64,000 nt of DNA, from positions 16,692-80,691 of the forward strand of contig CAYMXW010000001.1 in assembly GCA_964394555.1 (NCBI GenBank). The letters are read 5' to 3'. This stretch comes from an uncultured Candidatus Saccharibacteria bacterium (GTDB lineage: Bacteria; Patescibacteriota; Saccharimonadia; Saccharimonadales; Saccharimonadaceae). The notes below the pieces were generated by a model that was not told the DNA's origin, made no database searches, and saw only the letters and a program-made list of their open reading frames with translations. The stretch's first letter is position 1, and every line of letters starts with the position of its first letter. Positions 16,633 through 38,835 of the stretch are shown piece by piece. Both the position numbers and the translations under genes were made by a program.

Positions 16633-17703
16633 TTAGCATAAGCGTAAGTAGGCGTCAATAAACTCATCAATTTTGCCGTCTAGGACACTATCGGGGTCCT
16701 TGCTTTCATATTTAGTGCGGGTGTCTTTGACTAATTTGTAAGGTTGAAGAACGTAGTTGCGAATTTGTTGACCCCAACTGGCGGACTCGCCGGCGCGTAA
16801 TTCGTTGATGGAGGCGGCGTTTTGTTCTTGTTGTAGCTGAATTAACTTACCTTTTAAGATTTCCATAGCCTTGGCGCGATTTTGGATTTGTGAACGCTCG
16901 TTTTGGATGGCGACGACGGTGTTGGTCGGGAGGTGAGTGATACGAACGGCAGAGTCGGTAGTGTTGACGCCTTGGCCACCGTGGCCGCCACTACGATAAA
17001 CATCGATACGGAGGTCCTTGTCGTCAATTTCGAGGTCCTTATCGTCAATAATAGGCAAGATTTCCACTAGCGCAAACGAGGTTTGGCGGAGATTGTTAGC
17101 GTTAAAGGGGCTAAGTCTGACGAGGCGATGAACACCGTGTTCGGATTTGAGGGTACCGTAGGCATCTTTGCCTTCGATTTCATAAACGGCGGTCTTGATG
17201 CCGGCTTCTTCGCCGGCGGTGCGGTCTAAGAGTTTGGCTTTGAAATGGTGATTTTCGCAAAATCTTAGATACATACGTTCTAACATACCAGCCCAGTCCA
17301 TAGCCTCGGTGCCGCCGGCACCAGAGGTGATGCGCAAAATAGCGCCTTCGTGGTCGTATTTGCCGGTGAACCTAAGAGTTTGGCTAAGTTCGTCCAACTT
17401 AGTAGCGATAGCGCCTAGCTGCTCGGTAATTTCGGTTTTTAAATCGGCGCTTTCGAGGTTTAATAGTTCGTTGATGTCATTTAGCTGGGTTTTTAACATT
17501 AGAAAGTCGTGGGTTTCTTCTTGTAATTTGGCGAGCTGAGTGTTTTTTTGTTTGGCGTTTTCGGGATTGGTCCAGATTTCGGGTTCACTAACTTCGGCTT
17601 CGAGTTTGGCGATTTCGTCAAGTTTAGCATCAATATCTAGCCTTCGCCAAAGATCGGTTAGTTTGGTGTTTAGCGTTTCGGCTTGTTTTTCTAGTTCGCG
17701 CAT
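16633..17703 (-). CDS. prfB: Peptide chain release factor 2 (continuous frame, no programmed frameshift)
   Basis: GAGGTEA, SPF anticodon-mimic tripeptide, GGQGVNTTDSAVR and QIRNYV. Confidence 0.97.
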   Translation of the reverse strand: MRELEKQAETLNTKLTDLWRRLDIDAKLDEIAKLEAEVSEPEIWTNPENAKQKNTQLAKLQEETHDFLMLKTQLNDINELLNLESADLKTEITEQLGAIATKLDELSQTLRFTGKYDHEGAILRITSGAGGTEAMDWAGMLERMYLRFCENHHFKAKLLDRTAGEEAGIKTAVYEIEGKDAYGTLKSEHGVHRLVRLSPFNANNLRQTSFALVEILPIIDDKDLEIDDKDLRIDVYRSGGHGGQGVNTTDSAVRITHLPTNTVVAIQNERSQIQNRAKAMEILKGKLIQLQQEQNAASINELRAGESASWGQQIRNYVLQPYKLVKDTRTKYESKDPDSVLDGKIDEFIDAYLRLC

Positions 17704-27834: not shown

Positions 27835-28755
27835 TTATATCACATTGATAACGTAGAGGATGTAGAAAGCGATGCCGTTTTTGAGCATGTGGAGAAGAAT
27901 GCCGCTGTGGATGGTACCAGTGGCTTCGCGCAAGGCGCAAAGGACGAGACTGAGACAGAAAACATTGACACCGACATTCCATTGGAGGTGAAGTAAGCCA
28001 AAGAGGGCGGAGACGATGAATATCGACAGTACTAGTGATAGTGGGAAGTAGGCATAACTTATAAACGGCAGTCTAACTTTTTCAGGAATAAGAGCGCGGA
28101 GTTTGCCATAGAGCCAACCGCGAAAGATAATTTCTTCGGCCACTGGGGCGACCACAACGAGCGCAAAGAAGGCGGCGAGGCGGTCAAAACCGCTATATAG
28201 AGAGTTGAAGCCAACATCTTGGGCTTGACCGGCGTCAAACCAGGGGAAAATGGCGGAAAAAGCAAAAGTAAAGATGGCGGCGATAAGAAAATAGGCGATG
28301 AGGCCGACCGGTGCGAGACCGATGTCGAGCCAAGTAGGAAGACCATTTAGCCCAAGATTCTCACGGGTGACTTTTAAATCTTTAAATTTTTGAGAGATTT
28401 TGTGGGTTTTGAAAAATAGATAGGGTATGCCAACATTAAGGGCTACCATCAAAGCATAGACAATGAGGTCGTAGATGGCAAGGTTGAGTGGTTCTTGGAG
28501 CTGAGCGCTAGTGAAGCCAAAGACGCGGATGGCGAGAAAAGCGATGAAGTACTGCGAAAAGAGAAAACAAAAGCCAGTCCAAGCTAGCATTGCGATTATA
28601 ATGGAAAAAAGAAGTAAATGAGTTTTTGGCGGGCATCCGCAGTTACGACGTTCGCCCCTTGGGACGCGTGAGCGAAGCGAAGGACGCAGCGACGAGGCCC
28701 GTGACGACGGGCCCGAGGAGCGTCCGCCAGAAACTTCGTTTACTTCTTTTTTCAT
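27835..28755 (-). CDS. CPBP family intramembrane metalloprotease carrying a palindromic insertion near the N-terminus
   Basis: APVAEEIIFRG, FGLLH and HMLKN motifs; multiple TM segments. Confidence 0.88.
   Translation of the reverse strand: MKKEVNEVSGGRSSGPSSRASSLRPSLRSRVPRGERRNCGCPPKTHLLLFSIIIAMLAWTGFCFLFSQYFIAFLAIRVFGFTSAQLQEPLNLAIYDLIVYALMVALNVGIPYLFFKTHKISQKFKDLKVTRENLGLNGLPTWLDIGLAPVGLIAYFLIAAIFTFAFSAIFPWFDAGQAQDVGFNSLYSGFDRLAAFFALVVVAPVAEEIIFRGWLYGKLRALIPEKVRLPFISYAYFPLSLVLSIFIVSALFGLLHLQWNVGVNVFCLSLVLCALREATGTIHSGILLHMLKNGIAFYILYVINVI
28621..28735. repeat. Palindromic element copy 1 (within the CPBP reading frame)
   Basis: Terminal arms AGTTTTTGGCGG / CCGCCAGAAACT; core hairpin GGCCCGT-GACG-ACGGGCC at 28696-28713; GC-rich relative to its surroundings. 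Confidence 0.75.
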
Positions 28756-28756
28756 A

Positions 28757-29992
28757 TTAAAACAGCCTTGTGATGTCTAACACGGTAATGATGACGATGA
28801 GGGCGAGAAGAACGATGAAGGCGCGTGAGACGATGCGCTCTTCGGTGTCCTTGGTGAGCTTTTTGCGACGTAGGCGGAAGATAGCGATAAGTAGCCAACG
28901 ACCACCGTCAAGCGCTGGGATAGGAATAACGTTCATACAGGCGAGTGAGACTGAAATGAGCGCAGCGAGAAAAGCGACATTGGTCGGGCCGGCTTCGGTA
29001 AAGGCGGGAAAAACGGTACCAACGATACCAACGGGGCCAGAAACCGAATCGCCGGCGGCGCCGATAGCTTCCCTACCCTGCTCACGCGTATCGCCGTCAA
29101 AACTGACTTGACTGACGATACCGGAGCACAAATTCCAAAGTAGATTGCCGAGACCTTCAAAAGTCGCGCCGGTGAGCTGAATAGTGGTAGCAGCGCCAAC
29201 AATGGGTGCCGACCAAGTTGAGCGGTAGAGCGCTTGACCGTTTTGGCTCATTGAAATACCGAGTAGATAGCTAGCATCTGCGGTGCCAAGCGTAGCGGAA
29301 AGTTGCTTTTCAGTATTGTCGCGCATGATATTGTAATATACCTTCTCAGAAGGGTGAGATTTATTGAAGCCAGTGACGCTAGTGGCATCAACAACATCGA
29401 TAGCGTCGGTACAGCTGGGATCGTTTAGACAATCTTCACTTGGGGCGGCGCGTAAAATTTGGTCGCCTGGTTCAAAACCAGCTTTTTCGGCGGGTGAGTC
29501 TTTGACAACTTCTCGGACGGTGACGATACCCGGAGCGACAGAGGTGTCGCCCTGAATAGTAAATTGATTATCGACAAAATGTGGCATACCGGTAATAGCA
29601 AGGACGGTAAGGATGATGAATGCCACAAGCCAGTTGGCGGCGACACCAGCAAAGAGAATTTTAGTTTTTTGCCAAAACGAGGCAGCACCAAAAGTACCCT
29701 TACGAGTATCGGCGTCGGACTCGCCATCCATGGAACAAAAACCGCCGATAGGTAGCCAGTTGAGGCTTAAAATTAGGGATTTTTGTTCCTTTTTCCAGTC
29801 TTTGCGGGGGAGGCGGTGCCATTTGCCATCTTTGCCCTTAACCCAAGCAAGAGCTTTGGGCGGAAAGCCGATGCCAAATTCTTTGACCGTTACGCCGTTT
29901 CTGCGGGCGGCGATAAAGTGGCCGAGTTCGTGGGCAACGATGAGCCCCATGAGCACGAAAATACCAATGATGATACCAAAAACAATATTCAT
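28757..29992 (-). CDS. rseP: RseP-like M50 site-2 protease with PDZ domain
   Basis: HELGH, LPIGGF, AGVAAN and NVIPIPALDGG. Confidence 0.93.
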   Translation of the reverse strand: MNIVFGIIIGIFVLMGLIVAHELGHFIAARRNGVTVKEFGIGFPPKALAWVKGKDGKWHRLPRKDWKKEQKSLILSLNWLPIGGFCSMDGESDADTRKGTFGAASFWQKTKILFAGVAANWLVAFIILTVLAITGMPHFVDNQFTIQGDTSVAPGIVTVREVVKDSPAEKAGFEPGDQILRAAPSEDCLNDPSCTDAIDVVDATSVTGFNKSHPSEKVYYNIMRDNTEKQLSATLGTADASYLLGISMSQNGQALYRSTWSAPIVGAATTIQLTGATFEGLGNLLWNLCSGIVSQVSFDGDTREQGREAIGAAGDSVSGPVGIVGTVFPAFTEAGPTNVAFLAALISVSLACMNVIPIPALDGGRWLLIAIFRLRRKKLTKDTEERIVSRAFIVLLALIVIITVLDITRLF

Positions 29993-37566: not shown

Positions 37567-38835
37567 CTAAGTGGCAGTTTTACGTTGTAGCACAATTAGG
37601 TTCTCGATGTGGGGAGTGCGGGGGAAGAAATTGAAGGGCTGGAGATGAGTAATTTGGTATTTTTGCTGGAGAATCTGGACATCGCGAGCTTGAGTGGCGG
37701 GGTTGCAAGAGAGGTAAATGATAGTAGGCGGGTGCTCGGCTAGGAGTTTGTCTAGAAGTTTGGCGTGGCAACCGGCGCGAGGGGGATCGAGAATTACGGT
37801 GGTGTCGTTTTCGATAAAATCAAGTGCGTCTTCAGATTTACTAAGAAATGTTGAAATGTTACTCTTGGGGACGCGTCCGGTCGGCCCGTCGCCACGGGCG
37901 ACCGGCGCTGCTTCTCGCGCTGCCGCGCTCCGAACGCCCCCAAGAGCAGCATTTCCAACATTTCTAACCAGTTCCGAATAGGCGGATTTGTCGACTTCGA
38001 CGAGAGTTAAAGTGCGGTCGCGAGCAACTGAGAGACCAATGGTGCCGACGCCAGCGTAAAGATCAAGTACTTTATTAGTAGTAATATGGCGTTTAATTTC
38101 GGTAAGGGCCATTTCGTAAACTGGTAGGTTGATTTGGAAAAAGCCGTTGGGTGAATAGGAATATTCGTAGCCGAGAATAGTGTCGGTGAGGGGTGTAAAA
38201 GTAGGGTGGGGCTGACCGTTTTCGTAGAGGCCGCCGCTGACAGTTCCCTGCTGGTTGCAACGCAGGAGCAGAGATTGAAAGCGACGCGCTTCGGCATGCT
38301 CGGCATTAAGCTGGTCGACGATTTCAGTAGCCTTTTTGAAAATCTCGGGGCGTTCTAGGCTAGACTGAGTAATCGGGATTTTGTAATGGGAGCCGCGTTG
38401 ATGAAAGGCAAGGCTGATTTTGCTCGTCTCGTTATCCCAATAAAGCGCATATTCCATTTTATTGCGATAATGAAAATCTTTATTATCAGTTACAGGAAGT
38501 CTTTCAAACATGTCTGTTTGAAAGACTTCTTTGACCAACAAAGACTTTTGTTCTAGTTCATAATCGTAATCCATAATTTGCCAAGGCGAGGTGGAGAGGT
38601 AGCAAGCGTCACGAGGTTCGACGCGGTGCAAAGAGTGGTCAGCGGTTTTGGCAGCGATGGCTTCGATGTAGTGGGTTTTAATTTTGGTGGGTTTGAATTC
38701 GATGACGGTTTCGCCTGGCAGAGCGTTCCAAAACATGGCTTTTTTACCATCGGAAAGTGTGCCGATTCCCTGTCCACCAGGAATCAAGCTAGTAATCTTG
38801 ACTTTTTCGGAAGATATGTTCTGATATTTATTCAT
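37567..38835 (-). CDS. RlmD/TrmA-family RNA m5U methyltransferase with an in-frame palindromic insertion
   Basis: TRAM-like N-terminus, YRNKME, FFQIN, LDLYAGVG, LDPPRAG, YLSCNP and FFPRTPHIE. Confidence 0.92.
   Translation of the reverse strand: MNKYQNISSEKVKITSLIPGGQGIGTLSDGKKAMFWNALPGETVIEFKPTKIKTHYIEAIAAKTADHSLHRVEPRDACYLSTSPWQIMDYDYELEQKSLLVKEVFQTDMFERLPVTDNKDFHYRNKMEYALYWDNETSKISLAFHQRGSHYKIPITQSSLERPEIFKKATEIVDQLNAEHAEARRFQSLLLRCNQQGTVSGGLYENGQPHPTFTPLTDTILGYEYSYSPNGFFQINLPVYEMALTEIKRHITTNKVLDLYAGVGTIGLSVARDRTLTLVEVDKSAYSELVRNVGNAALGGVRSAAAREAAPVARGDGPTGRVPKSNISTFLSKSEDALDFIENDTTVILDPPRAGCHAKLLDKLLAEHPPTIIYLSCNPATQARDVQILQQKYQITHLQPFNFFPRTPHIENLIVLQRKTAT
37844..37965. repeat. Palindromic element copy 3 (inside the methyltransferase reading frame)
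   Basis: ~27-bp arms AGAAATGTTGAAATGTTACTCTTGGGG / CCCCAAGAGCAGCATTTCCAACATTTCT; core CCGGTCGGCCCGT-CGCC-ACGGGCGACCGG at 37877-37905. Confidence 0.8.

Follow-up and report, generated by a model that had tools for sequence, protein, structure and literature searches.

Where does a membrane protease begin when a palindrome of about 150 nucleotides (nt) touches its start codon? The question is raised by a locus of an uncultured Candidatus Saccharibacteria bacterium, contained in a stretch of 64,000 nt (positions 16,692 to 80,691 of contig CAYMXW010000001.1, assembly GCA_964394555.1) that is called here the window. On its minus strand a gene for an RseP-like site-2 protease (rseP) is followed by a gene for a CPBP/Rce1-like intramembrane protease, and a GC-rich palindromic element lies over the beginning of the latter. 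An earlier note on this DNA had proposed that the element is one member of a small repeat family and forms the N-terminus of the CPBP protease. Our analysis leads to a similar conclusion: the segment 28604-28753 is probably one copy of a small palindromic DNA repeat whose family is specific to the genus, and which at this place is in frame, is translated and is maintained at the level of DNA.

The source genome (G000) is a 628-kb assembly of 31 contigs with 45% GC. It was compared with a sister species from goat jejunum (G015, RGIG2539), with a locus of a third species from sheep ileum (L114, RGIG5781) and with other genomes of the genus, which comprises Ca. Nanosyncoccus-type Saccharibacteria of the ruminant and human gut with genomes of 0.6-1 Mb.

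Structure of the element

The arms named in the earlier note were found at their places: AGTTTTTGGCGG (28621-28632) and CCGCCAGAAACT (28724-28735) form an inverted repeat with one mismatch. The inverted repeat extends well past these 12-mers, with arms at 28604-28626 and 28731-28753; if the GGCGG/CCGCC ends are counted, each arm measures ~30 nt and the repeat adjoins the ATG. The core between the arms has a GC content of 64%. The inner stem strings GGACGC (28682-28687), GCGTCC (28720-28725) and GGCCCGT-GACG-ACGGGCC (28697-28714) were likewise confirmed, and so was the tract GAGCGAAGCG (28670-28679; CGCTTCGCTC on the minus strand). The description of this tract as REP-like had to be abandoned, because there is no Y1/RAYT transposase and the architecture differs. 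The motif said to be common with a copy in a methyltransferase gene of the window is present as CTTGGGACGCGT at 28658-28669 and as CTTGGGGACGCGT in the methyltransferase copy, which starts at 37844. As the note had stated, the two copies have opposite orientations: the one studied here is antisense to its host gene and the other is sense.

Folding of a 164-nt region, performed for RNA and for DNA and compared with 200 shuffles, predicts a long stem topped by a three-way junction. The RNA fold has -68.9 kcal/mol against -43.4 +/- 4.3 kcal/mol in the shuffles (z = -6.0), the DNA fold has z = -6.6, and in neither case did any of the 200 shuffles match the stability of the element. The same Y-shaped architecture is predicted for all 17 copies that were first located in the source genome by a whole-genome scan for GC islands and motifs. 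With the family copies aligned in a covariance model (R1, which was also used for the searches of both genomes, the genus and the phylum), the copy at the CPBP gene scores 62 bits (E = 8e-14), and its proposed family membership is thus beyond chance.

An Rfam 15 scan of 28400-28950 returned two chance-level matches outside the core (E = 6 and E = 8), and a known ribozyme, riboswitch or small RNA was therefore rejected. A scan for promoters and terminators found nothing over the element.

The N-terminus of the CPBP protease

The protein matches PF02517 with 60.8 bits (cut-off 22.4), and the residues E207, E208, R212, H256 and H289 of the EExxxR and His motifs (EE..FR) are invariant in 35 CPBP orthologs. 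Its minus-strand open reading frame (ORF), 27835..28755, begins 1 nt past the rseP-like stop and reads MKKEVNEVSGGRSSGPSSRASSLRPSLRSRVPRGERRNCGCPPKTHLLLFS..., as had been described; residues 2-51 are encoded by the element.

The gene order rseP-CPBP is kept in all relatives examined. Start codons were compared in 79 relatives with this junction. In 74 of them the distance from the rseP stop to the first in-frame CPBP start is between -4 and +3 nt, and for the ATG at 28755 it is +1; a true start downstream of the element, which the earlier note had considered, was not borne out by the orthologs. The spacing between rseP stop and CPBP start (28753-28759 of the window and loci L113-L192) is -1 nt in 36 genomes, -4 nt in 16 and 0 to +3 in 18, and conserved translational coupling joins the site-2 protease with the CPBP protease in nearly all genomes of the group.

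Between 28755 and Met56 (28588-28590) there is no in-frame ATG, GTG or TTG. The CPBP orthologs have a short Lys-rich tail followed by the first transmembrane segment (TM1), always with at least ~9 hydrophobic residues ahead of a conserved Trp; none of the 79 starts fewer than ~9 residues before this Trp. A start at Met56 would leave two hydrophobic residues there, and the protein would therefore be shorter than that of any relative. Many orthologs that clearly start upstream have a Met at the equivalent position, and the L114 protein has no Met there. From the start codon to the Trp one of the six frames is open in the source genome and in the sister species, namely that of the gene, and two of six are open in the third species. 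A comparison of these three species shows that frame and openness are kept through an inversion of the element, described below, and through a 30-nt internal insertion. In an AlphaFold2 model run with 35 orthologs (pTM 0.82) residues 1-43 are coil (pLDDT ~50) and helix 1 extends over residues 44-78, beginning at Lys44 within the arm-encoded KTHLLLFS.

The same evidence bears on the alternative that the element is intergenic or a 5′ leader, that the CPBP protein starts downstream of it (at Met56 or at a non-canonical codon), and that the hairpin is a terminator, an attenuator or an mRNA-stability element crossed by a fortuitous open frame. Such a leader would agree with the in-frame ATG three codons ahead of the conserved Trp in the source genome and the sister species, with the burial of the upstream ATG in a very stable hairpin, and with the intergenic position of six other family copies. 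It is hard to reconcile with the missing ATG in L114, the internal Met of orthologs that start upstream, the minimum of ~9 residues before the Trp in all 79 orthologs, the conserved abutment of start and rseP stop, and the frame that survived inversion and insertion with only the gene frame open; moreover, the scan gave no terminator-like site over the element, and AlphaFold2 puts arm-encoded residues into helix 1. We consider a leader quite unlikely.

Conserved start position, ortholog lengths, frame openness and the AlphaFold2 model thus support the earlier proposal that the element forms the N-terminus ahead of TM1. On these sequence comparisons and this model, the element is probably translated as part of the CPBP protease. 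Translation would most likely start at the ATG at 28755 and be coupled to rseP, which terminates 1 nt upstream. The predicted stem would bury this start codon, and protease synthesis should then depend on ribosomes that terminate at rseP. The product would carry a disordered, positively charged cytoplasmic tail of ~40 residues, and the distal arm would encode the first turns of TM helix 1. The predicted tail is net positive in both orientations of the element, as would be expected for a cytoplasmic N-terminus.

Copies of the family and their host genes

The 17 copies of the source genome are 115-150 nt long, are all predicted to be long hairpins, and have in common a core hairpin CCCGT-NNNN-ACGGG and the Y-shaped fold. 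The covariance model matches 16 copies in the source genome and 34 in the sister species. As read from the aligned copies, the plan of the family is a conserved GC-rich three-way-junction core, semi-conserved inner arms and copy-specific AT-rich outer arms. The core has two hairpins, A, which is variable, and B, which is conserved; the stem of hairpin B has compensatory changes, and the hairpin with its loop is nearly invariant across copies. The semi-conserved part of the arms (TTTTTYGRGGGGC / GTCCCCYCRAAAAA) is limited to the inner ~12 nt, and the outer arms are AT-rich inverted repeats of 10-25 nt, which differ from copy to copy. Within the genus 73 of 81 genomes have model matches, 1-33 copies each, and 8 have none. 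A covariance-model search of 130 sampled genera of the phylum gave no match in any other genus.

At least 10 of the 17 copies lie in frame in ORFs of 255-1038 amino acids (aa); they are stop-free, occur in both orientations and use at least two frames per orientation. The host genes encode Der, a 1038-aa class I aminoacyl-tRNA synthetase, UvrB, AlaRS, a UvrD-like helicase, RNase HII-YraN, two methyltransferases, PheT and a pseudouridine synthase. Six other copies are intergenic. Ortholog alignments reveal empty sites in relatives that lack the insert.

About 30% of the reading frames across copies are open, yet every gene-internal copy is open and in phase, which argues that the elements are read through and not spliced out. 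An intron or excised element was rejected, because every in-gene copy is stop-free and in phase. The statement of the earlier note that both strands can be read without stops is not shown by the CPBP copy alone, where one of six frames is open; it is shown by the inverted ortholog of the sister species. An assembly artefact was also rejected, since dozens of independent metagenome-assembled genomes, produced by different studies, contain the family.

Two insertion hot spots were noticed, the inter-domain linker of Der (L056-L081) and one loop of UvrB (L030-L055), where many species of the genus carry element-derived peptides that vary in frame, orientation and length. A second Der site (~residue 320) is filled in several species. 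Several contigs of the source genome end at or near an element copy whose flanks are contiguous in the sister species (C20:11708-11839, C5:1-650 and the end of C21); apparently the hairpins break short-read assemblies.

The coordinates of the features are collected in Table 1. They include a second, unrelated GC-rich repeat family, of which there are at least seven copies in the 628-kb genome; a copy of it in the sister species adjoins the element at L104 and is 93% identical to a copy on C9.

Table 1. Position of the element, its parts, the adjoining genes and the second repeat family
Feature	Position	Strand	Remarks
CPBP/Rce1-like intramembrane protease gene, 306 aa	27835..28755	-	Pfam PF02517, 1.6e-16
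RseP-like M50 site-2 protease gene	28757..29992	-	Pfam PF02163 at 4e-39 and PDZ; stop coupled to CPBP start
Whole palindromic element, two arms and core, predicted Y-shaped three-way junction	28604..28753	.	Inverted-repeat search; folds with z ~ -6
Left arm GAAAAAAGAAGTAAATGAGTTTTTGGCGG (+ strand)	28604..28632	.	On the gene strand the 3′ arm; encodes PPKTHLLLFS, the beginning of TM helix 1
GC-rich 91-nt core	28633..28723	+	The + strand is taken as 'forward' and is antisense to the CPBP gene; covariance-model match C1:45313-45426 (+)
Extra ~30-nt module GTTCGCCCCTTGGGACGCGTGAGCGAAGCG, nested in hairpin A region	28650..28679	+	Alignment; edges uncertain by 1-2 nt
Conserved hairpin B: lower stem GGACGC/GCGTCC around GGCCCGT-GACG-ACGGGCC (28697-28714)	28682..28725	+	Invariant family columns and compensatory pairs
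Right arm CCGCCAGAAACTTCGTTTACTTCTTTTTTC (+ strand)	28724..28753	.	On the gene strand the 5′ arm; encodes KKEVNEVSGG right behind the start codon
ATG start codon of CPBP gene	28753..28755	-	1 nt past rseP stop; outer edge of palindrome; partner CAT 28601-28603
Alternative in-frame ATG (Met56)	28588..28590	-	Sole candidate start downstream of element; judged an internal TM1 residue
Copies of second repeat family GGGTGGCGCCGCTTGGGGGACCCC...GTGGGGGAAAATGCGGCG	C4:19849-19910, C7:27499-27616, C9:6539-6622, C9:7307-7399, C14:6227-6298, C14:12376-12463, C26:121-275		All outside the window

Inversion in place and remodelling of the arms

Among ~100 related loci, an element at the rseP-CPBP junction was found in two relatives, the sister species and L114, and all three junction copies are in frame with the CPBP gene. 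The L114 copy has an 84-nt core, sense to the gene. The copy of the sister species consists of an L114-type core and a 30-nt (10-codon) module; this module, at 28650-28679 in the window, is missing from the orthologous L114 copy. The copy of the source genome is the composite of the sister species in reverse complement: after reverse-complementing 87 of 91 positions are identical, and there is no alignment in the same orientation. Asymmetries of the arms (AAACGAAG versus AAATGAG) have changed sides, which argues for an inversion of the entire palindrome whose breakpoints lie in the outer arms. The encoded peptides, SGGRSSGPSSRASS... in the source genome and FLAGIRSHDVRPLG... in the sister species, are unrelated. 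Because the sister species reads the reverse complement in frame and thereby obtains an unrelated peptide, the peptide itself is not under selection; as judged from the alignments, what is conserved is the DNA of the element rather than the peptide.

Three of the ~8 copies common to the source genome and the sister species are inverted. The aminoacyl-tRNA synthetase copy is identical at 94 of 98 positions after reverse-complementing, and the copy in the UvrD-like helicase gene is inverted likewise. The copies in UvrB, AlaRS and RNase HII-YraN and one intergenic copy are not.

A short module (GTTCGCCCCTTGGGACGCG...) was found in four places. At 28650-28679 of the window it is nested in hairpin A of the CPBP copy; at C14:8460-8570 (C14:8517) it lies within another palindromic element, which has copy-specific arms of its own; at C29:4259-4329 (C29:4278) it is in the spacer between two tRNA genes; and at ~1560-1590 of L200 it is nested in the UvrD-like copy of the sister species, not in the ortholog of the source genome. 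As the module recurs in such differing contexts, the elements look modular or nested.

At the CPBP locus both arms changed in concert between the source genome and the sister species (GAAGTAAAC/GTTTACTTC versus GAAACAAAC/GTTTGTTTC). At L110 and L104, which are filled in the sister species and empty in the source genome, one arm has an outer part made of host sequence that the source genome also has, and the other arm is an inverted copy of this part. The 3′ arm at the CPBP locus overlaps sequence needed for TM1. The start codon is an ATG at the arm edge in the source genome, and the sister species and L114 have GTG AGT AA. The arm repeat of the source genome spans the ATG and has the partner CAT within TM1 codons; this start codon may therefore derive from the arm. 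A supposed kinship between the outer arms of the aminoacyl-tRNA synthetase copies of the two species was dropped as indistinguishable from low-complexity similarity.

Template switching between imperfect inverted repeats homogenises the arms, inverts the spacer and expands the repeat (PMC8604942, PMC13100816, PMC8794818). It fits the inversions in place, the concerted changes of the arms and the outer arms copied from the host flank, and for this reason we adopted it as the process that would, during replication, maintain and remodel the hairpin at the level of DNA. Copies would persist between genes or in frame within genes. As to how copies are seeded, a search for PF01797 found no resident HUH/Y1 transposase in the source genome or the sister species, and one scan of viral contigs with the hairpin B pattern for carriage by phages gave a single chance match (11.9 bits).

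About 20 copies of the sister species have empty sites in the source genome, and some copies of the source genome, including that at 37844, are missing from the sister species. So many sites filled in one sister species and empty in the other suggest a fast turnover. In the methyltransferase gene that lacks, in the sister species, the copy at 37844-37965 of the window, another copy (L209) lies ~600 nt further along, at a site that is empty in the source genome. A further methyltransferase site is filled in both species (C7:8167-8250 and L206) by different element subtypes, the L206 copy being 89% like the PheT copy of the source genome and unlike the copy at the same site; this difference suggests replacement or independent insertion.

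Conservation of the core and strand asymmetry

Over six pairs of orthologous copies the cores of the source genome and the sister species are identical at ~510 of 530 positions (96%), compared with ~83% for 365-nt flanks. Cores in the same orientation are 92-99% identical and their flanks 70-95%; the UvrB copy is 100% identical over 115 nt in a gene that is itself 84% identical. The best paralog of the CPBP copy in the source genome is 84-91% identical over 45-67 nt. Orthologs are thus closer to each other than paralogs, which argues against homogenisation among copies.

Several points weigh against the interpretation that we favour. An open frame across GC-rich DNA is by itself weak evidence of translation, and a hairpin of -69 kcal/mol that contains the start codon should, if it folds as predicted, hinder initiation. 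The empty-site comparisons rest on few loci at ~80% identity. A second aminoacyl-tRNA synthetase copy of the sister species (L092) has arms ~85% like those of the neighbouring copy, and hence arms can travel with the element and are not always host-derived. The core is 4-5x better conserved than neighbouring coding DNA, unlike simple junk; this conservation could mean a function at the level of the host or recent exchange between lineages, and not self-correction of the hairpin. Finally, in 28 of 31 copies the more stable fold is that of the forward strand (mean -77.4 versus -68.9 kcal/mol). This strand has 105 G-U pairs against 52, and mismatches of the arms favour wobble on it by 17 to 4 (p = 0.007, for counts that lack phylogenetic independence). 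It is on the C-rich strand in 13 of 17 copies. These asymmetries are hints of a single-stranded stage that is specific to one strand, or of selection on one of the strands, and a strand-specific stage is not required by the template-switch model. Mutation bias from GC skew was rejected as the source of the G-T excess of the forward strand, because this strand is mostly on the C-rich strand.

Taken together, the core identity, the strand differences in folding, wobble and placement, the near-invariance of hairpin B and its loop, and a peptide left unconserved by inversion could also be explained if the core were a structured nucleic acid kept for the host, such as a binding site, a folded single-strand signal or an RNA of the forward strand, with read-through a side effect and the element not mainly selfish DNA. 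A host function fits less well with a copy number of 0-33 within the genus, where 8 of 81 genomes have no match, and with the ~20 copies whose sites are empty in the source genome, so that no individual site is needed. The copies lie in unrelated genes and flip their orientation relative to transcription, no Rfam family matches, the asymmetry counts are not phylogenetically independent, and correction from arm to arm could also slow divergence. We therefore regard a host function as unlikely.

A conserved stem-loop, strand-asymmetric folding with a weak replication-strand bias and the tract that had been called REP-like are also what a hairpin of the REP/REPIN type, or one derived from IS200/IS605 that a RAYT/Y1 HUH transposase mobilises in the form of single-stranded DNA, might display. 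PF01797 (Y1_Tnp) is, however, missing from the source genome and the sister species, whereas the same search detected it in six control genomes; within the genus it occurs in 7 of 81 genomes, and its occurrence there bears no relation to copy number. Most of the elements lie inside genes, and they have an ~85-nt three-way core, copy-specific arms and no consistent flanking motif. An origin of this kind is very improbable.

We thus retain the reading given at the outset, that of a DNA-level maintained repeat translated in frame at this locus, as the probable one. In a bolder version of it the family would be a coding palindrome of a self-maintaining 'flip-flop' kind. Selection would act on it as a folded nucleic acid; it would be recognised or processed strand-specifically and would invert in place without breaking the host gene, and its growing arms would rewrite host coding sequence. 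We hold this version to be rather unlikely. If it were true, an ancestral GTG start would have been replaced at the CPBP locus by an arm-derived ATG, the element would have supplied the protease with its lysine-rich tail and with part of TM1, and the family would be a generator of protein termini and loops in the reduced genomes of the candidate phyla radiation (CPR), not passive junk.

Relation to known systems

In-frame 'selfish' palindromes have so far been treated largely as a peculiarity of Rickettsia. The family described here is a second one, apparently unrelated by descent to the Rickettsia palindromic elements (RPEs), which fills housekeeping genes of a Saccharibacteria genus of the CPR. 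A full-text search of the literature for elements of this kind in Saccharibacteria brought up no description. The CPBP locus separates constraint on DNA from constraint on protein, in that either orientation is readable in sister species and the nucleotides are better kept than the gene; it shows how such elements can remodel the N-terminus and the start codon of a protein; and it offers a natural system for the evolution of hairpins by template switching in essential genes. The insertions also inflate and distort CPR gene calls and protein alignments and break contigs in metagenome assemblies.

In studies of template switching and quasipalindrome mutagenesis (PMC8604942, PMC13100816, PMC8794818, PMC7202029) the process predicts spacer inversion, homogenisation of the arms and their outward growth, as found here. 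The precedents concern short repeats of a few to tens of nt in yeast, Escherichia coli reporters and primates, not the maintenance of a dispersed, translated repeat family, and template switching gives no account of how new copies reach new sites.

[quoted passage not shown] The present family differs from REP/RAYT in having no RAYT/Y1 gene in the source genome and the sister species, and from REP/REPIN in its ~85-nt three-way core and the location of most copies within genes, compared with short extragenic palindromes. It differs from both REP/REPIN and MITEs in that the conserved part is the interior and not the termini, and in that most copies are coding. A crude check, made on flanks too short for the purpose, gave no consistent target-site duplication of the MITE kind, and the arms are semi-conserved only in their inner ~12 nt.

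The closest resemblance is to RPE-1 to RPE-10 of Rickettsia (Ogata et al. 2000 and 2002, in the summary given by PMC10969869). According to that summary, RPEs are, like the present family, palindromic repeats of 100-150 bp dispersed in a small, host-dependent genome; many copies lie in frame in unrelated housekeeping genes, which they leave unbroken, adding a peptide at tolerant sites; and no transposase is given there as known. Compared by description and not by sequence, the family would be an analogue of the RPEs rather than a member, confined to one genus of Saccharibacteria. By the same descriptions it departs from them in being GC-rich in a genome of 45% GC, in its three-way-junction core and in outer arms that differ from copy to copy and come in part from the insertion site. 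Genes read it in either orientation and in more than one frame, its orthologous copies are inverted in situ, and the nucleotides of its core are more conserved than the genes that host it.

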